Shown: piece after piece, positions 9,755 through 17,515 of the stretch
How the letters are laid out: each line of letters starts with the position of its first letter
Position numbering within the stretch: the stretch's first letter is position 1
Source of the DNA: a virus
Strand: one strand, 5' to 3'
Length of the DNA: 64,000 nt
IMG/VR virus record: IMGVR_UViG_3300024181_000004
Coordinates: 2,329 to 66,328 of that record
The notes under the pieces: generated by a model
What the model saw: the letters and a program-made list of their open reading frames with translations, nothing else
What the model was told of the DNA's origin: nothing
Database searches by the model: none
Translations under genes and position numbers: made by a program

Positions 9755-10516
9755 TTACTGTTTCTGCGCCGAGATGTGGGAGAAGTCCTTCACCTCGGAT
9801 ACCGTTGCGTTGCTTGTGTTCTGCGCAAATTGGATGACGAACGTGCCGCCGCCAGCGGCATCGACGATCAACATCCCGTCGATGCAAACCTCCCACAGCA
9901 CAGGGCTCCCGAGAAGTTCGTCGTACCCCACCAGCGGTGTGGCAGGAAAGGCGCTCGTGATGTCGTGCGCCACCGTCACTAGGTTGACGACGGAGTTGAT
10001 CTTGCAATTGAAGGTGGCGTCAGTCAGCGTTGCGGTTCCGGCGAGTCCGATCTTGAGACCGCCCGATCCGGCGAACACGTAGATCCGCCCATAGAGCGTG
10101 TAGGACTCTCCGGCGTCGAGGTCGATGGACAGACCTGGCACATCCGCGAGCGTCGTGTCGCTCGTCTTGTCGAACGGGGCAGTGGTGTGACCCGTCAGCG
10201 GGCGAAGGTCGAGTAGATCCTTCTCGGACACGCCCTGGATGATCCGGTACGTCTTGCCGCCGGTATTGTGGTCGGCGGCCGTCGTGCTTTCCTGAGCCCT
10301 CGTGATCGTGAGCACGTCGCCGGCGATGTTCGTGACGCGCACGATCTCTCGGTCCGGGTCCAGGCTCGCGCGCGCGTAGTCGGTCGAGTTCCAGATCGTC
10401 GCGTTCTTCGGGAACGAGAAGCGCGCGCCGTCGCCGGTGGCCACGGTCAGCGAGGTGGCGACCGAGGAGATGCCCGAAGCGAGGGTCGATTCGGCGAAGT
10501 TTTTGACCGGATCCAT
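9755..10516 (-). CDS. Virion structural protein (two-domain, fibre/collar-like)
   Basis: N-terminal STLASGISSVATSLTV...EIVRVT...LTITRAQEST domain typical of phage structural proteins; C-terminal beta domain similar to 12737-13381. Confidence 0.55.
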   Translation of the reverse strand: MDPVKNFAESTLASGISSVATSLTVATGDGARFSFPKNATIWNSTDYARASLDPDREIVRVTNIAGDVLTITRAQESTTAADHNTGGKTYRIIQGVSEKDLLDLRPLTGHTTAPFDKTSDTTLADVPGLSIDLDAGESYTLYGRIYVFAGSGGLKIGLAGTATLTDATFNCKINSVVNLVTVAHDITSAFPATPLVGYDELLGSPVLWEVCIDGMLIVDAAGGGTFVIQFAQNTSNATVSEVKDFSHISAQKQ

Positions 10517-10930: not shown

Positions 10931-11515
10931 CTATTTGCGGTAGCGGCGGAGCGCCTGTTTGAACTCCGCCAGCGCTGGATCGTCAGTCCTGTTGATGGTG
11001 AGATCGCCCTGCGAGAACGACGAGGCGCCGAGCGTCGCGTCGGGACCGAGCCGGAATCGGCTGATGACGAGGTTGATCATCTTTCCGCGCAGGTCTTCCG
11101 GCACGCGCGGAACGTGCGCCGAGTCGGTATCTGCGGCGGGGTAGAAGCCGCCGACGTAGGTCACGCGCGCGGCGCGCTGCTGCTCGAGGAAGCGGCCCGC
11201 GGTCCACGTCAGTTTCGGATCGTCGTCCTCGGGAACCTCGTTCCAGATGAACTCCGCGACGTCGATCACCGTGCCGCCCGTGTCGCTGGGCGCGGAGTAG
11301 ACGATCACCTCGCTGACGCTGATGATCGGCGGCTCGCGGAGGAACAGGAAGTCGATGCCGTAGCCGCGGACAAATTCGGCGCGCTCTTTGCGCTCGAACG
11401 TTCTGCCGACGCCTCGCGCCTCGGCGTTCGCCCCGTTGACCAGGTTGACAAGGAACGCGTCGCTGGCGCCGGCGCCGAGGATCGTGGCGACTTCGGCCGT
11501 GGTGATGAGATCCAT
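10931..11515 (-). CDS. Head-tail adaptor (SPP1 gp15/HK97 gp6-like)
   Basis: LITTAEVATILG N-terminus, RVTYVGGF, VPEDLR motifs. Confidence 0.8.
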   Translation of the reverse strand: MDLITTAEVATILGAGASDAFLVNLVNGANAEARGVGRTFERKERAEFVRGYGIDFLFLREPPIISVSEVIVYSAPSDTGGTVIDVAEFIWNEVPEDDDPKLTWTAGRFLEQQRAARVTYVGGFYPAADTDSAHVPRVPEDLRGKMINLVISRFRLGPDATLGASSFSQGDLTINRTDDPALAEFKQALRRYRK

Positions 11516-11601
11516 AGGCGTGCGCTCCTGGAGGAATCCGGGGCGAAGGCAAATTCTGGACGACCGGCTGGCAACCGTTAGATGCTACAAGGCGCGCCCC
11601 G

Positions 11602-11790
11602 CTACGATTTTCGGCGCTTAAGGAACGGAACCTGACGACCGGCTTGCTTGAGTTCCTGCGCTGCAATCGGCCGCAGCCGCAATCGAAGCCATGTGGACAA
11701 CGATAGGCCGGCCAGGGACGCCGCCTCGTTAAATGCAGCCTTTTCTTCGGGTTCCAGACGCACTTCGGTCCTGTCATTTTTCGGTGACAT
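11602..11790 (-). CDS. Ribbon-helix-helix regulator (DUF1778-like)
   Basis: 62 aa; RTEVRLEPEEKAAFNEAASLAGLSLSTWLR pattern. Confidence 0.75.
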   Translation of the reverse strand: MSPKNDRTEVRLEPEEKAAFNEAASLAGLSLSTWLRLRLRPIAAQELKQAGRQVPFLKRRKS

Positions 11791-11793
11791 GCG

Positions 11794-11808
11794 CCGTACA
11801 TTGTACGG
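11794..11808. promoter_or_regulatory. Palindromic operator copy 1 (CCGTACA-T-TGTACGG) overlapping leftward -10 TACAAT
   Basis: Perfect 7-1-7 inverted repeat; on the - strand TTGCGG-N18-TACAAT ends 9 nt before the ATG at 11790. Confidence 0.7.
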
Positions 11809-11854
11809 TTAGGCGCTAGGCCGCCGCAAGAACATTGACGCGCCCGTACATGTG

Positions 11855-11869
11855 CCGTACATTGTACGG
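11855..11869. promoter_or_regulatory. Palindromic operator copy 2 overlapping rightward -10 TACATT
   Basis: Identical to copy 1 (17-bp direct repeat 11793-11809 / 11854-11870); TTGACG 11836-11841, TACATT 11858-11863, ATG at 11871. Confidence 0.7.
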
Positions 11870-11870
11870 T

Positions 11871-12215
11871 ATGACAATCGCCAACCGCCTTCGTCTCTGT
11901 GTCGTCGCGGCCGCGGCCTTCCTGACGCCAGGAGTCGCTGCGGCCGATCTCTGCGCCGAGGCGACATCCTGTCGCTGCGGCATTCGGATCGTCTCGTACC
12001 GCATCTTCGGCCAGCCCGGCCAAGAGATCACCTACGACGGCGACCGCTTCGTGATCCCGCGCGCGGGCGTGATCGAGTTGATCGCGGACCGTCGTGAGAA
12101 TGAACTTCTCGTCGGTGAGTCGCGCATCATCCTGAAGCGTGATGAACGGGCGATGACCGAGTGCGACCAGTTCGCCGCGTGCCGCGTATCGCTGATACTG
12201 GAGGGTAGGCCGTGA
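11871..12215 (+). CDS. Secreted Cys-containing moron protein
   Basis: Signal-peptide-like N-terminus ending VAAA; opposite strand to the late operon. Confidence 0.6.
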   Translation: MTIANRLRLCVVAAAAFLTPGVAAADLCAEATSCRCGIRIVSYRIFGQPGQEITYDGDRFVIPRAGVIELIADRRENELLVGESRIILKRDERAMTECDQFAACRVSLILEGRP

Positions 12216-12367
12216 AGAAACCGCAAGGCGTCGGATACCTCTGGATCGGCATCGCCCTTCTTGTAGGTCTCGCGCTCGTCTATTTCGTCGTATCCGCCGC
12301 GATCACGGCCGACACAGCGACGACTCGCACATCGATTGCCAGCCCGTCACGCGCTACTCCGGCGTGA
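12212..12367 (+). CDS. Small single-pass membrane protein (51 aa)
   Basis: Hand-translated from GTG 12212 (GTGA overlap): MKKPQGVGYLWIGIALLVGLALVYFVVSAA... Confidence 0.5.
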   Translation: MKKPQGVGYLWIGIALLVGLALVYFVVSAAITADTATTRTSIASPSRATPA

Positions 12368-12722
12368 CGTTCGTGATCTTCCCGTTCGCGACCAGCCATG
12401 ACGTCACCCGCTGCCGGAACTTCTTCGCCGCTGTTCCGGTCTCACCACCGACCGGAGATTCGATCGTCGTCAAGAAGGAAGTGAGTTCAGCGCCAGTCAG
12501 CAAGATAATCGACGTCTGGACGATGTTCACGCCCCCGGCATCGAAGTAGTAGACGGTGATCGATGCGCCCGCGACGTCGTTTCCTGCGCCGTTGCTCATG
12601 TTGAGCGACGCGATCTTCCAGGAGGCGGGCGCGATGTTCGCTGGCGTCGTAACGGTGCCGTCGGGCCGAGCCGACGTGACGGCGAAGAGGAACAGCAGGG
12701 CAACAAAGAGAGAGCGTTTCAT
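12354..12722 (-). CDS. Signal-peptide-bearing hypothetical protein
   Basis: Real start ATG 12722: MKRSLFVALLFLFAVTSA. Confidence 0.65.
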   Translation of the reverse strand: MKRSLFVALLFLFAVTSARPDGTVTTPANIAPASWKIASLNMSNGAGNDVAGASITVYYFDAGGVNIVQTSIILLTGAELTSFLTTIESPVGGETGTAAKKFRQRVTSWLVANGKITNVTPE

Positions 12723-12736
12723 CGACAGCCTCCGGT

Positions 12737-13381
12737 TCAGATGATCCGTGCTTTGAGGTAGGAGTTGATGAATACGGTAGACGTCCCTGACGTCACCTTC
12801 AGATGTTGGATCGTGAGGTTCCCGGCATTCGCGCCGACGGCGATGACGCCCTTGATGAGGATGCCGCCGGTAGCGCCAGAGGTTAGGAACGCGGCCGTCG
12901 CCGTGTTGAGTGCCGAGACACGGACGGTCTGCGCGGACGTGGCGAGCAATGTACCAGTGCACTGCGATTCGACTGTCGCGCCGGCCGCGGAGAACTGCAC
13001 TCCGTACTCCGTCCCTGCCGACGACGAGGACTGAACCGAAAGCGTGGCCTCAAATTCGTAGGTGGTATTCGCAGCCAACGGGATCGACAGGCCGGTGATG
13101 TTGACGAGCGCCTGGCCTGTTGTGGTCGCGTTCGATCCGCTCACCCGAACCGTGGTGTAGAAGTCGGTCGGCGCGGCCCCGGCTGCCGGAATCTCCACCA
13201 ACAACTTGACCCAGTTATCTGCTGTCGGGCAGTACCAGAACGTCTTATCTGATGTGCGGTAGAAGAACTCCGGCGGGCTATACAAAGCGATCGGAGTGCA
13301 CGTTGCCGGAAGAGAGATTCCGCTCGCTCCGAAAGCGAATGGAGCGACGAGGATGGCGATGACTGCGAATGCGTAGCGCAT
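12737..13381 (-). CDS. Signal-peptide-bearing beta-rich protein
   Basis: MRYAFAVIAILVAPFAFGA; C-terminal domain similar to 9755-10516. Confidence 0.7.
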   Translation of the reverse strand: MRYAFAVIAILVAPFAFGASGISLPATCTPIALYSPPEFFYRTSDKTFWYCPTADNWVKLLVEIPAAGAAPTDFYTTVRVSGSNATTTGQALVNITGLSIPLAANTTYEFEATLSVQSSSSAGTEYGVQFSAAGATVESQCTGTLLATSAQTVRVSALNTATAAFLTSGATGGILIKGVIAVGANAGNLTIQHLKVTSGTSTVFINSYLKARII

Positions 13382-13384
13382 GAA

Positions 13385-15493
13385 TTAGCTCGTAGGTGCG
13401 ACGAACGTTGTTGCGAAGACCGAGCATCTGATCACGCCGGCCCCTGGAGTGCCGGTGGTGGTGATGCGCAACTTCGCTGCGCTCGTCTGTCTCGGCCCTG
13501 ATGTTCCGGTCTGGTCGACGTGCGCCAATCCGACGCTAGTTGTGCCGCTGGTGAGCGTCGAATTCGCGGCGGCGAAACGAGCTGCGATCGTTCCGTCACC
13601 GACCGACCAATTCGTAGCCGTGGTGATGGTTGTGGTGATGCGGCAGGTCACCGAATCGATGACGCTGTCCGCCGGCAGCAGATTCGCGGAGCTGTCCGTC
13701 GTCGTGCCTGAGGTCGAAAGCGTGATCAGTTCAGAGTTGACGACGAGCTTCCGTTGTGCGCCGTTGGAGACGGTCACTTGGTCATACTCGGCCGACTGTA
13801 ACGTTCCGGCGGTGCTTGCACCCGCGCCGGTGCCGACGCCCACAACTCCGGCCGCGACTTCAGACAGTCCAGTCCTAGCAACCTGACCGACTGTTCCGTT
13901 GCCGGTCCAGCCGACAACGGGAGCATGCGTTGTTAGGAGTAGTCCCAGGGTGCCGTGAAATTCAAGAACGTCGTTAGAGCTGGCCACTAGGTCGATTGTT
14001 CCAGAGCGAACCCATAACCCATTCGTAGAGCCGGAACCCAACATAAGCGACGGAGCTGCGTTTGAACCGTTGATCGGCACAATTACCGAGCCGGTACCCT
14101 TCGGCACGAGGGAGATTGATTCGTTGGTTCCTCCTAGCGCCGTGAGCGTGACTCCGGAGCCGGACGCGTTGCCTTTGATCTCCAGCCCCGTGGCCTGAGA
14201 CGCCACGTTGTCAACGACGCGGAGCACCGGGCTGGTGCTACCCGCTGGGCCAACTTCAAGACCTGCAGCGCTCGCGTCGGTGATGACGAGGCCAGTACCT
14301 GTGCCCTCTCCAATCGGCACGTTTGTGATGGCCGATAGAACACCGGATGTGAGCGACGCGACGCCTGTACCGGTGGCGCGTTTGCCGGTCTTGCCAGCCG
14401 TGCCCGAGAACAGCACGACTTCGCTATCGACTGACGTGGAAGTGTTGGAGGAGAAATCGCCAGCCGCCGCTGGCGTAGCTGATGTCCACGTCGTCCCGTT
14501 GCTGGTCAGGACGTTTCCGGACGTACCAGGCGCCACGAATGACGGCGCGGAGGTACCGTTGCCGAGGATAACGTTGTTCGTCGTGAGCGTGGCCAGACCC
14601 GTCCCGCCCTGCGCAACCGTCACGGCCGCGTTGTCGGTGAGGATCGTGGCGTTCGCGTTCGGGAGCGTGAACGTCTTGAGCGATGACGCCGGCCCACTGA
14701 AGGCCATGAAGCCGTTCGCCGTACCGCCGTTCGCGCCCGGCAGGATGCCGGAGACCGCAGCGGTGAGTGACACCCCAGCGCACGTAAACGCCCATGCGGT
14801 CGACTGGGACTGCGCGAAGGTATTGGCGCCGCATGCCGTAGGGGTGTGATCGGCGGCGGAAGACGTCGCCGCGTTGCCGGTCGTCGATCCAGAGGAGCCA
14901 GACACGTTGCCCGTGACGTTGCCGATCACGTCGCCGTTGAACTTCCCCGTCTTGTCGAAGAAGGTGAGAACACCGTTCGCCTCGTCCTGTAGGTCGAGGA
15001 AGTGCGAGGTCTGCGCAGCCGATAGGCGGCGGAACGTCGCGGTCACGAGATCGGTCACCGGCTGAACGGTGATGATCTTGAAGCTCGGAGAGAGCGTGAA
15101 GTTCGTGATCGTCGTGGTGGTAACGAGCGAGGCCGCGTCCGTCAGGTCCGTCGACGCGGCGCCGGCCGAAAGCACGCCCGACGCGAGTTTCGCGATGCCG
15201 CTGCCTGTCGCCCGCTTGATGTGTTTGCCGTCGGTGCCGGACCAGAGAACGACCTCATTGTTAACCGATGACGCCTGCCCGACGACATCGCCCGATCCGC
15301 CGCCACCGCTCAGCGCCTGGTAGTTGGTCCCGTCGCAGATGTAGAGCGCGTGGTTGTACATCACCACGGGCTGACCAATGCGGCACGCTCCTGGAGTACT
15401 CGACATGGCAACGATGCCATACGGCTTGTTGCTGGCTGTCTGCGCGGCGAGGGACGGGCAGAGGAGTAGCGCGATGATGATCAGTTTCTTCAT
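13385..15493 (-). CDS. Fibre/adhesin-like protein with signal peptide (702 aa)
   Basis: MKKLIIIALLLCPSLAAQ; Gly/Ser/Thr-rich; fibre motifs VTVAQGGTG and GTSGNVLTSNGT; internal ~43-aa repeat. Confidence 0.7.
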   Translation of the reverse strand: MKKLIIIALLLCPSLAAQTASNKPYGIVAMSSTPGACRIGQPVVMYNHALYICDGTNYQALSGGGGSGDVVGQASSVNNEVVLWSGTDGKHIKRATGSGIAKLASGVLSAGAASTDLTDAASLVTTTTITNFTLSPSFKIITVQPVTDLVTATFRRLSAAQTSHFLDLQDEANGVLTFFDKTGKFNGDVIGNVTGNVSGSSGSTTGNAATSSAADHTPTACGANTFAQSQSTAWAFTCAGVSLTAAVSGILPGANGGTANGFMAFSGPASSLKTFTLPNANATILTDNAAVTVAQGGTGLATLTTNNVILGNGTSAPSFVAPGTSGNVLTSNGTTWTSATPAAAGDFSSNTSTSVDSEVVLFSGTAGKTGKRATGTGVASLTSGVLSAITNVPIGEGTGTGLVITDASAAGLEVGPAGSTSPVLRVVDNVASQATGLEIKGNASGSGVTLTALGGTNESISLVPKGTGSVIVPINGSNAAPSLMLGSGSTNGLWVRSGTIDLVASSNDVLEFHGTLGLLLTTHAPVVGWTGNGTVGQVARTGLSEVAAGVVGVGTGAGASTAGTLQSAEYDQVTVSNGAQRKLVVNSELITLSTSGTTTDSSANLLPADSVIDSVTCRITTTITTATNWSVGDGTIAARFAAANSTLTSGTTSVGLAHVDQTGTSGPRQTSAAKLRITTTGTPGAGVIRCSVFATTFVAPTS

Positions 15494-16176
15494 GGCTTGA
15501 ACACCGTCACGATGCCGATCGCAAATTCGGGATTGGTTCCGCCGAGAGTCAACTTGTAGCGTCCCGAGATGCCGAGTCTGTCGAAGTACCCGGCCTCGAT
15601 GCCCACCGCCGTGTTCTGGGTAAAGGTGGCGCCAATGCTGTACGGCTCCACGCCATCGATGCTGGCTTCGAACTCGACATCAAGGGTTGGCAGGGTTCCC
15701 GCGGGACCGGCGAGCGGCGTCGACGTCATGGCCGTCACCACTCCGGTGCCGTCGTTGCCGGCGGCCAGGATCACAGAGACGAGCGCCGAGGCCTCCGGGC
15801 TGGCCTCGATTGCCGCCTTCACCTCGCTTGCTTTACTGATGATGGCCGATGCCGCGCGCGCGAGCGTGACGGTGATGTCCGTGTCGACCACTTCCACCGA
15901 AAGCGATGATGTCGCGCCGCCGGGGTCGACGAAGGTGATCGTGATGTTCTGATCACCCGATAGCCGCGCGAAGAAGGTCAGGTCGTTGTTGGTGCCGGCG
16001 AGGTTGGTGGTCAGGTACTCGAAGACGGAGAGGACGGAGATCAACTCTCGTGGCTCTTCGGTGCTGAACCACGGCAGCGTCTCGCTCGCGCCGATGAGGC
16101 GCGGACCTACCTGCGCCCCGGCGATGCGGATGGGCTCCTGATAGTTGGCGCGATTCTCGTTCGGCTTGAAGCCCAT
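15490..16176 (-). CDS. Capsid decoration-like protein, paralog B
   Basis: Co-linear similarity to 16826-17515 (NNDL.F.AR, NDGTGVVTA, PTLDV); head module. Confidence 0.6.
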   Translation of the reverse strand: MGFKPNENRANYQEPIRIAGAQVGPRLIGASETLPWFSTEEPRELISVLSVFEYLTTNLAGTNNDLTFFARLSGDQNITITFVDPGGATSSLSVEVVDTDITVTLARAASAIISKASEVKAAIEASPEASALVSVILAAGNDGTGVVTAMTSTPLAGPAGTLPTLDVEFEASIDGVEPYSIGATFTQNTAVGIEAGYFDRLGISGRYKLTLGGTNPEFAIGIVTVFKP

Positions 16177-16179
16177 GGC

Positions 16180-16374
16180 TCACCTCTCTCCGTTACTCTT
16201 CGGGCGACGCTTCTTCTTCGGTTCTGCGGCGCTGTCGCTCAGGTCCGGGCAGCCTTCCGGCGCTGACACCTGGTCGTCGACGCGCTGGATATCGCCGTCG
16301 ACGTCGCGCGCGCGAATTTGCCTGTCGCCCGGGCGGATCATGCGGTCGCGTTCTGCGGGGATTCGTCGAAACAT
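16180..16374 (-). CDS. Small hypothetical protein
   Basis: ATG 16374 fills the gap in the operon; basic C-terminus. Confidence 0.35.
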   Translation of the reverse strand: MFRRIPAERDRMIRPGDRQIRARDVDGDIQRVDDQVSAPEGCPDLSDSAAEPKKKRRPKSNGER

Positions 16375-16384
16375 TGGTCGCCGC

Positions 16385-16810
16385 CTAATGGTTCTTCTGC
16401 GTGCGGTGCGCGTCGCGCGCGGCCGCGGTGGGGAAGTGCTTTCGTCCGACGCTGAACTTGCAGCCGTCGGCAGGACAGTGGAATGGGCCCGCATCCGGCG
16501 GGCGCGGCGACGCCTCATCCGGTCGCGTTGCGCTGGCAGCAGGTGGAACTTCCGTGGAGATGGGCGACGCGTCAGCCGGCGGCGGGGCGTCGAGGGTCGC
16601 GTCGCTCGGTACCTGTACGGTCTGTGGTGGCACTTCCTCCGTGACCGACGGAGGCGCCGAAGGTGTGACCTCCGGCGCCTCAGATGGGATGTCGATTCGC
16701 CGCCCGTACTTGCCGAGCGCGCGCATGTCGGCCTCCGACAGATCGTCGTAGACCCCGGGCGCTCGCAGGTAGCCGTAGTGAACCGTGGCGTTCAACTCGA
16801 ATGCGGGCAT
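16385..16810 (-). CDS. Pro-rich head-module protein with C-terminal C2H2-like zinc finger
   Basis: CPADGC-x8-F-x6-H-x4-H near the C-terminus. Confidence 0.55.
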   Translation of the reverse strand: MPAFELNATVHYGYLRAPGVYDDLSEADMRALGKYGRRIDIPSEAPEVTPSAPPSVTEEVPPQTVQVPSDATLDAPPPADASPISTEVPPAASATRPDEASPRPPDAGPFHCPADGCKFSVGRKHFPTAAARDAHRTQKNH

Positions 16811-16825
16811 GGGCGGCGTCTCACG

Positions 16826-17515
16826 TTACGCGTTCGGACGGTAGACGGCGTCGATGGCCACCGCGAACTCCGCGGTGCCGGTGATGGTGAGGACCCAGCG
16901 GCCCTTCATCGTGACGCCCGTGAACAGCTTGCCCTCCACTCCGACGGTCGTCTTCTGCGCGAAGGACGCGACGTCGAAGTAGTTCACCCCGCCGTCGGTC
17001 GAGCACTGGAGTTTGACGTCGAGAGTGGGGTTGGTGCCGGCCACGGCCGCGAGGGTCGCCTGCGACAGCGCGGTGACGACGCCGGTGCCGTCGTTGGACG
17101 GCGCGAGGGCCACGGCCACCAGAGCGTTCGCCTCGGCGTTGGCCTCGATCGCGGCCTTGATCTGCGCAGCGGTCGTGGTGATCGCGCCGGCCACGCCGGT
17201 GGCCAGGTTGACGGTGATGTCCTGGCCCGAGACGACGATGCCGAGCGCAGCGTTGTTCGCCGACGGATCGACGTACGCGATGCGCACGGTCGGCGTCGAG
17301 CCGGCCACGCGGGCCATGAAGACGAGGTCGTTGTTCGAGCCGCTGAGCGCGGTCTTGAGCAACTCGCTGACCTTGAGCGTCGCGATCAGCTCGCGCGCGC
17401 TCTCGAAATCGAACGCCGTGTGCGTTTCGGTCGCGGTCATGTACTGGAACGCGATCTGCGCATCCGGCAGCGTGATCGGATCGGGGTAGAAGGTGTGATT
17501 CTTGTCGTACGGCAT
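16826..17515 (-). CDS. Capsid decoration-like protein, paralog A
   Basis: Immediately after the capsid gene; PTLDVKLQCSTDGG beta-sandwich pattern. Confidence 0.65.
   Translation of the reverse strand: MPYDKNHTFYPDPITLPDAQIAFQYMTATETHTAFDFESARELIATLKVSELLKTALSGSNNDLVFMARVAGSTPTVRIAYVDPSANNAALGIVVSGQDITVNLATGVAGAITTTAAQIKAAIEANAEANALVAVALAPSNDGTGVVTALSQATLAAVAGTNPTLDVKLQCSTDGGVNYFDVASFAQKTTVGVEGKLFTGVTMKGRWVLTITGTAEFAVAIDAVYRPNA

Follow-up and report, generated by a model that had tools for sequence, protein, structure and literature searches.

Three consecutive late-operon genes with predicted Sec-type signal sequences, including a mosaic fibre gene, in a lambda-like soil phage

We analysed a stretch of 64,000 nucleotides (nt) (positions 2,329 to 66,328, hereafter called the window) of the IMG/VR virus record IMGVR_UViG_3300024181_000004; the window makes up most of this linear 70.2-kb record from soil, which is estimated to be 87% complete and has a G+C content of approximately 64%. 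Directly behind its capsid and capsid-accessory genes, the late operon contains three consecutive minus-strand genes named P0001, P0002 and P0003, which encode a mosaic fibre, a knob protein and a small partner protein, and all three products are probably exported via the Sec pathway, as judged by comparative sequence analysis. We tentatively read the trio as a late-expressed, Sec-exported adhesin cassette, with the fibre being added to the virus particle outside the cytoplasm, although this second part falls short of being probable. An earlier reading of the letters without database searches (the sequence-only reading) had described the three open reading frames (ORFs) of 702, 214 and 122 amino acids (aa) and quoted their N-termini, both of which are as reported there, and had proposed an exported fibre module that is either picked up by virions at lysis or displayed on the host surface as adhesin or decoy; export is supported by the comparative evidence, while the two proposed fates were not told apart. 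The three genes and their signal-like segments are as follows:

13385..15493, minus strand: P0001, mosaic fibre of 702 aa with a predicted Sec-type signal; G, S, T and A make up 52% of the mature residues
12737..13381, minus strand: P0002, 214 aa, with a signal-like start, a short and poorly modelled N-terminal region with two cysteines, and a predicted TNF-like knob
12354..12722, minus strand: P0003, 122 aa, with a signal-like start and a conserved domain of ~100 aa (three strands, two helices)
15443..15493, minus strand: signal-like segment of P0001, aa 1-17 (MKK followed by LIIIALLLCPSLAA), called by heuristic, with predicted cleavage before Gln18
13325..13381, minus strand: signal-like segment of P0002, aa 1-19 (MRYAFAVIAILVAPFAFGA), called by heuristic and modelled as a lone helix at aa 2-16
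12669..12722, minus strand: signal-like segment of P0003, aa 1-18 (MKRSLFVALLFLFAVTSA), variable across eight family members

Signal calls were made with our own n/h/c-region heuristic combined with comparative evidence rather than with a trained predictor, and cleavage sites were placed by eye. For Sec-dependent export with cleavage by signal peptidase I, the first 15-35 residues had to contain a basic n-region, an uncharged h-region of 7-15 residues, and small residues at positions -3 and -1. All three proteins pass, with n-, h- and c-regions of MKK, LIIIALLLC and PSLAA (cut before Q) in P0001, MR, YAFAVIAILVAPFAF and GA (cut before S) in P0002, and MKR, SLFVALLFLFAV and TSA (cut before R) in P0003. 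The heuristic selects seven out of 77 gene models in the window, and five of these are contiguous at 11835-15493, consisting of the trio and a convergent pair on the opposite strand, with the other two being weak (7-residue h-regions); the signal patterns pointed out earlier therefore go beyond chance. As control we used 77 other IMG/VR loci with a relative of the capsid-accessory gene, where approximately 6 out of approximately 220 ORFs of the downstream structural module pass, two of which are homologous fibres.

The comparative evidence consists of segments that vary in sequence and length up to the predicted cleavage site, where conservation starts, both in the fibre orthologues and in the P0003 family. 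When four orthologous fibres were aligned, the mature N-termini all begin with Gln and the preceding segments differ in sequence as well as length; in the loci L002, L006 and L007 the invariant Gln is followed by a conserved C..G..Y.C..GGGSG domain, and this post-signal Cys-Cys domain is also present in L019. The eight members of the P0003 family vary over their first 17-24 residues, with the invariant columns beginning at D21 G22 T23 (DGT..P), and nearly all members of the wider family (36 clusters at 50% identity) keep a signal-like start, with predicted cleavage between A and DG or between A and Q. The sequence-only reading would have fallen if the starts were further downstream, but neither P0001 nor P0003 has an in-frame start between Met1 and the conserved mature part, and hence the hydrophobic segment must be translated. 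Finally, the mature cysteines are all paired in five related fibres, most pairs being 10-19 residues apart and those of the C-terminal tips wider, as expected for disulphides formed outside the cytoplasm.

These observations also bear on the possibility that the N-termini do not serve export, and instead are uncleaved helices of the trimer or particle, membrane tethers of assembly intermediates, or pro-peptides cut by a phage protease. The known virion parts of tailed phages are all cytoplasmic, which is in line with this explanation, as is the suggestion that the prohead protease removes the predicted signal peptides of capsid proteins (Matrishin et al. 2023, PMC10367356). However, the combination of a basic n-region, an uncharged h-region and a small-x-small site predicts an N-in/C-out topology with cleavage by signal peptidase, and a structural helix would be conserved, whereas this segment varies freely. 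In addition, a few relatives lack the segment and two of these start at about the mature N-terminus, the cysteines are paired throughout the mature parts of the five fibres, and P0002 and P0003, which are not fibres, bear the same kind of N-terminus, all of which makes a role other than export improbable.

With regard to the type of signal, a lipoprotein signal (signal peptidase II), for which a lipobox [LVI][ASTVI][GAS]C with a conserved Cys at +1 was required, was considered for P0001 on the basis of LLLC at residues 9-12. It was rejected, as Leu occupies position -1 and the orthologues in L002, L006 and L007 either lack the Cys or have it displaced; P0002 and P0003 have no Cys within the signal-like segment, and thus no lipobox. 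Gln is found at the predicted +1 position of P0001 (Gln18, 15440-15442) and of the fibres in L002, L006, L007 and L009, but its place is taken by Asp in the L019 fibre, by Ser in P0002, and by Asp or Arg in the P0003 family. This recalls the Q-rule of the Bacteroidetes, although the probable hosts here are Acidobacteriota and not Bacteroidota. The fibres with Gln at +1 are linked to Acidobacteriota-type contigs, where a Q-rule-like habit would be outside the Bacteroidota and confined to fibres.

The position of the trio ties it to the structural genes. In the late operon on the minus strand, the terminase is followed by a portal-MuF fusion, a 545-aa protease/scaffold-like protein and the major capsid protein, which is of the HK97 type (Pfam Phage_capsid, E 1.7e-32). 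Behind it come genes for two capsid-accessory proteins (phrog_8757), paralogues of 229 and 228 aa, on either side of a 141-aa gene. P0001-P0003 are next, and then head-tail adaptor, neck and tail-completion genes and those of a lambda-like tail with tape measure, minor tail proteins and a central fibre of the J type (phrog_31, E 7e-85). The gene immediately upstream of P0001 is:

15490..16176, minus strand: 228-aa capsid-accessory ('decoration-like') gene, paralogue of 16826-17515, without signal peptide

This gene had been labelled a decoration gene, a label that rests on its position and a weak match of its product to phrog_8757 ('virion structural protein', E 1.7e-5). Its end ('...aag cca tga') shares bases with the P0001 start ('atg aag aaa'), so that the ATGA overlap noted earlier can be read directly in the sequence. 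The P0002 start is spaced 3 nt from the P0001 stop, and P0003 starts 14 nt after P0002, at an internal ATG of a longer ORF, with a GGAGG sequence inside the gap and 7 nt upstream of the ATG. From the ATGA overlap and the 3-nt spacing it follows that expression of the trio follows the late operon, and a scan with a weak consensus found no minus-strand promoter-like site in 11300-16400. No RNA datasets carrying the stretch are listed, its sole full match being a soil-metagenome DNA run, possibly of the source sample itself.

Such an arrangement is not what would be expected if the genes were moron-type cargo for lysogenic conversion, i.e. surface adhesins or superinfection exclusion proteins that the prophage expresses and that merely happen to lie in the late operon. 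The phage is temperate, having an integrase and a tRNA-Glu attP-like site, the trio is directly adjoined by an undoubted moron (a ribbon-helix-helix (RHH) gene with a divergent secreted/membrane pair), and the G+C content at third codon positions (GC3) of the three genes at 12354-15493 is 0.75, 0.76 and 0.81, compared to 0.83-0.94 in the flanking capsid and adaptor genes, all of which could speak for cargo. The trio does not show the promoter and terminator of its own that would make it separable from the late operon, however, and with the missing promoter-like site, the overlap with the accessory gene, the short gap to the second gene and a slot that is conserved in relatives, we consider this explanation very improbable.

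The convergent pair (11835-12367) lies on the plus strand directly downstream of P0003 and outside the operon. Its first member is a Cys-rich protein with a signal-like start from Met13 (MTIANRLRLCVVAAAAFLTPGVAAA, followed by D), and the second is a 51-aa membrane protein, with its 3' end overlapping the end of P0003 by 14 nt. A promoter-like site (TTGACG-17-TACATT) is located near the pair at 11835-11863, and a minus-strand RHH-like gene of 62 aa comes after the pair (region 11602-12367). The late operon must read through this block in antisense.

The slot behind the capsid-accessory gene was surveyed in related loci, as the sequence-only reading had advised. In each of the five relatives found with a full-length, well-conserved accessory protein, this slot is occupied by a large signal-bearing protein. 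The identities of the accessory protein are 62% in L002, 65% in L007, 50% in L019 and 43% in L020 (the latter two by tblastn); in L002, L007 and L019 a signal-bearing fibre is encoded directly downstream of the accessory orthologue, while in L020 a large signal-bearing protein lies less than 1 kb away and three such proteins are found within 1-4 kb, one of which looks like a lipoprotein. In L021 (36% accessory identity) and in phages further removed, the slot contains nothing but small connector genes. The coupling to capsid genes claimed earlier thus applies to this lineage, and does not extend to the distant phages with a related accessory gene, which lack the module. Patterns of the major capsid protein gave no match in viral contigs, and the phage collection gave relatives at 22-27% identity only. 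In other phages the position differs: in the Mu-like L009/L010 a signal-bearing fibre and a P0003-like gene form a pair between head-completion and sheath genes, and in L003, L011 and L012 signal-bearing fibre homologues occupy tail-fibre slots.

The fibre itself is a mosaic, and the following parts of P0001 can be distinguished:

15308..15442, minus strand: aa 18-62, conserved domain behind the signal, in which Cys37 and Cys53 form a pair, with a GGGGSG linker after it; candidate anchor
15164..15274, minus strand: repeat copy 1, aa 74-110 (EVVLWSGTDGK..KRATGSG..SGVLSA)
14459..14776, minus strand: aa 240-345, widely shared fibre module with GGTG motifs, from the coverage profile
14330..14440, minus strand: repeat copy 2, aa 352-388
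13394..13735, minus strand: tip, aa 587-700, with a Cys617/Cys690 pair, from alignment with the L006 fibre

The duplicated motif that had been recognised by eye is real, with the two copies being 68% identical (E 2e-14). While sequence searches with P0001 found no match in Pfam, PHROGs or the PDB, its fibre character, also proposed earlier, is borne out by 1940 homologues, many of which combine the shared parts with a Peptidase_S74 domain, collagen or a classical tail-fibre N-terminus. The aa 240-345 module is the part matched by most of the homologues listed, with a coverage peak of 90-110 out of 119; among these 119, about half have classical signal-free tail-fibre N-termini, and about half have signal-like leaders, often with A followed by Q at the predicted site. 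Modules of tip and shaft, 60-80% identical, are likewise present on fibres that start with a classical virion anchor and have no signal. P0001 and P0002 both share the shaft or tip modules common to the tail-fibre superfamily; in place of the signal-free virion-anchor domain, P0001 starts with the signal-like segment and then the Cys-Cys domain. The tip of P0001 is 84% identical to that of a 580-aa signal-bearing fibre in L006, with the remainder of the two proteins being different, a pattern of tip exchange characteristic of receptor-binding proteins.

P0002 has a modelled TNF-like knob downstream of its signal-like segment:

12740..13159, minus strand: TNF/C1q-like jelly-roll knob of P0002, aa 75-214 (model, pLDDT mostly >95)

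Searches of Pfam and PHROGs gave only a sub-threshold SusE row for P0002. When the knob model was compared with the PDB, it matched the Photorhabdus lectin PLTL (9ib9/9ib7), the N-terminal domain of BC2L-C (2wq4) and the spike knob of phage phi812 (9eul), with a weak match to Bd1399 of Bdellovibrio bacteriovorus (8okh); the Foldseek probability was 1.0 for PLTL, BC2L-C-nt and 4-1BBL. The TNF-like lectins Photorhabdus PLTL (9ib6-9ib9) and Burkholderia BC2L-C are of the same fold class as aa 75-214 (Foldseek E 2e-4 to 2e-3, TM by target 0.46-0.56), at a sequence identity of 12-14%. The knob is nearer to phage tail-fibre tips, which were matched in BFVD down to E 3e-16, and tips of the P0002 type (60-75% identical) also occur on fibres with collagen or PTR repeats, some of which have a signal-like N-terminus and some of which do not. 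On the basis of the model, we are confident that P0002 has a TNF-like lectin-type knob as present on tail-fibre tips.

P0003 represents a family of small partner proteins, for which no Pfam or PHROG family and no known chaperone family or fold was matched. Its model has a pLDDT of 72.7; in fold searches nothing reached E 0.001 in the PDB, the best AFDB-cluster row had E 0.022, and in the Atlas only unnamed viral proteins of ~90 aa were found. The genes of this type always adjoin or closely follow a signal-bearing, G/S/T-rich fibre-like protein, in five genomic settings:

setting 1: the phage of this window
setting 2: the syntenic siphovirus L007/L008, binned with a metagenome-assembled genome (MAG) of Vicinamibacterales
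setting 3: the Mu-like myovirus L009/L010/L013, binned with a Thermoanaerobaculia MAG
setting 4: L006, a ~13-kb integrase/AlpA/DnaB element in a 132-kb bacterial contig, without recognisable capsid genes
setting 5: the 42% G+C phage L017/L018

A scan of genome contigs for P0003 gave one locus only, in a Thermoanaerobaculia MAG. Three distant relatives without a leader are P0282, P0283 and P0278, two of which begin at about the mature N-terminus (e.g. MDGTITP); their contigs end before the fibre N-terminus, and in L014 a fibre-like C-terminus is encoded upstream of the P0003 relative. The fibres upstream of P0003-type genes have no single N- or C-terminal domain in common, which means that P0003 is not matched to one tip, and it looks like either a general helper of exported fibres or a protein acting on something conserved in the host.

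The element in L006 (L006:1276-15837) contains an integrase, AlpA, a DnaB/AAA_25 helicase and a helix-turn-helix protein, and next to the 580-aa fibre it encodes a protein of 932 aa and a homologue of P0003 (71% identical); the element gave no PHROG match. It could be a satellite that re-targets a helper phage, or else a non-viral element making use of the cassette.

How the three proteins might work can be outlined in a few steps. SecYEG would translocate all three and signal peptidase I would cut them, in the fibre before Gln18, after which they would fold and form their disulphides in the periplasm, and this part of the scheme is likely to hold. Canonical holin lesions are large enough for fibre and particle to meet; the action of holin and endolysin would then merge cytoplasm and periplasm, allowing the trimeric fibre to dock on the finished particle, which is a tentative proposal when the chain of events is taken as a whole. 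Docking would be via the conserved post-signal Cys-Cys domain, most plausibly onto the accessory protein encoded just upstream, and would result in head or neck fibres aiding adsorption to surface glycans, with P0003 as periplasmic helper or distal fibre partner and P0002 as a second, short adhesin. Attachment to the particle would account for the coupling to the operon, a slot conserved among relatives, the contrast between a conserved N-terminus and a variable C-terminus, and the absence of another side fibre: the lambda-like tail is complete, its own proteins including the J-type fibre have no signals, and no side-fibre gene was seen after J or elsewhere in the phage. In a complex prediction with three copies each of the accessory protein and the fibre N-terminus, the score of 0.28 was under the mark, with no controls run alongside, and speaks neither for nor against docking.

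Several points weigh against attachment. To our knowledge, heads and tails of all tailed phages studied so far assemble in the cytoplasm, and an exported fibre could meet particles only during or after breakdown of the envelope, when dilution is fast. The absence of the fibre from distant phages with the accessory gene implies that it is dispensable for that capsid type, the cassette is present in the L006 element and in L017 adjoins terminase genes, and the lower GC3 would fit an accessory cassette that is exchanged horizontally. With regard to export itself, cysteine parity gave no clear split between signal-bearing and signal-free proteins in broad homologue sets.

Some of these points are accommodated if the proteins are exported without ever becoming part of the virion, as free trimeric adhesins or decoys released at lysis, which mask receptors or glue cells or matrix together. 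Phage T5 provides a precedent of sorts with Llp, which acts in a decoy-like protection of progeny. This explanation shares all the export evidence and sidesteps the topological problem, it can accommodate a cassette in an element lacking recognisable capsid genes, and it fits with the trio being mosaic and compositionally distinct. Bacteria are also known to use signal-bearing phage-like fibres as surface adhesins (PMC10769870), and unknown signal-peptide genes of Porphyromonas phages, which obey the Bacteroidetes Q-rule, have been read as envelope modifiers by Matrishin et al. (2023, PMC10367356), whose study does not mention fibres of either tail or head. However, free adhesins do not require the tight coupling of the trio to structural genes with a slot kept in five relatives, or a conserved domain at the fibre N-terminus such as usually serves to anchor fibres to particles. 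Loose receptor-binding tips would also block the phage's own progeny on fresh hosts, and reaching the surface of a diderm host from the periplasm needs an extra secretion step, for which no gene was seen. We regard free adhesins as possible but doubtful.

By architecture, the closest described system is the mosaic adhesive trimer (MAT) fibre family of Bdellovibrio, which has a signal peptide, a conserved N-domain, a mosaic trimer with swappable tips and surface display (Caulton et al. 2024, PMC10769870); the text of that paper does not mention Bd1399. P0001 shares with the MAT fibres the signal peptide, the mosaic phage-like shaft and the variable tip, but these are encoded by chromosomal genes of a predator for use on its own surface, whereas P0001 is phage-borne and located in a late structural operon with a small exported partner. 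Set against the MAT fibres by description, the post-signal domain also differs, being ~130 aa and beta-rich there and ~45 aa with a Cys pair here.

By homology, the closest systems are classical side tail fibres with downstream helpers. As in lambda Stf/Tfa, T4 gp37/gp38 and Mu S/U, there is a mosaic shaft, an exchanged C-terminal tip and a small gene directly downstream, but P0001 is encoded behind the capsid genes and not at the end of the tail module, and the tail fibres and helpers known to us are proteins folded in the cytoplasm that lack signal peptides. The gene position is shared with phi29 gp8.5, T4 Hoc and lambda gpD, which are likewise encoded right after major capsid or accessory genes, and on that position P0001 is a candidate head-fibre or decoration protein; these are dispensable adhesins added to finished capsids and have no signal peptide. 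Signal-bearing accessory proteins which use the host Sec system are found in tailed phages as T5 Llp, lambda Lom and Bor and the o-spanins, but these and the products of the Porphyromonas phage genes are small envelope proteins, whereas P0001 is a fibre-like adhesin of 700 aa in a structural operon. Our literature searches brought up no description of Sec signals on the tail or head fibres of a tailed phage; published notes on phage signal peptides concern small envelope proteins, spanins and capsid pro-peptides, and a paper on diversity-generating retroelements of Bacteroides phages states that the phage target proteins lack signal peptides.

What appears to be new is the slot behind the head genes, and that only the accessory block is affected in a long-tailed lambda-like phage, together with a conserved exported partner family, a TNF-like knob and a probable Acidobacteriota host. 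There is a moderate chance that the trio points to an undescribed assembly route. Put more widely, some tailed phages may run a second, extracytoplasmic assembly line, in which fibres, a lectin-type knob and a small helper are all Sec-exported, oxidised and trimmed in the periplasm and mounted at the holin stage on particles built in the cytoplasm, here probably on the capsid, and in which the fibre and its P0003-type helper form a portable cassette of siphoviruses, myoviruses and satellite-like elements, in Acidobacteriota as well as other phyla; in this general form the proposal is rather unlikely. If it were true, the textbook view of assembly entirely in the cytoplasm with release by lysis would be incomplete, and determinants of host range could hinge on Sec, Dsb and signal peptidase functions of the host, with a bearing on host prediction, the engineering of receptor-binding proteins and the reading of virion proteomes, and it would explain the signal peptides on many metagenomic 'tail fibre' genes. 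If the proteins act as free decoys or adhesins instead, they would represent late phage effectors of a new type that act extracellularly. The P0003 family offers a handle on these questions, being a short, easily expressed protein with a binding target that can be found experimentally.

Some further features of the phage concern fibre-like genes outside the trio. One of these, at 9755-10516 between the genes for adaptor and neck, encodes a signal-free protein of 253 aa with an N-terminus of the tail-fibre type (phrog_8469, E 7.6e-11). L007 has an orthologue in the corresponding position, and the protein may be a neck or collar fibre; neither this protein nor the C-terminus of P0001 showed significant similarity to P0002 using BLAST and hhalign. 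The J-type fibre is ~1650 aa in all and extends past the window to G000 position 1064 (L015, G000:C1:1-2700), with only small ORFs downstream of it until the end of the record, one of which has a membrane-spanning segment and may start the lysis cassette. Finally, runs of three to four consecutive signal- or lipoprotein-like proteins were seen in fibre modules of unrelated metagenomic phages with a G+C content of 0.38-0.63 (L011:7773-15440, L012:7333-13092, L017:5770-7390, L020:6646-10639 and L005:6155-12544); the low-G+C phages with such runs are L005, L011 and L012, and one member of these runs is a 743-aa fibre with a Peptidase_S74 domain.

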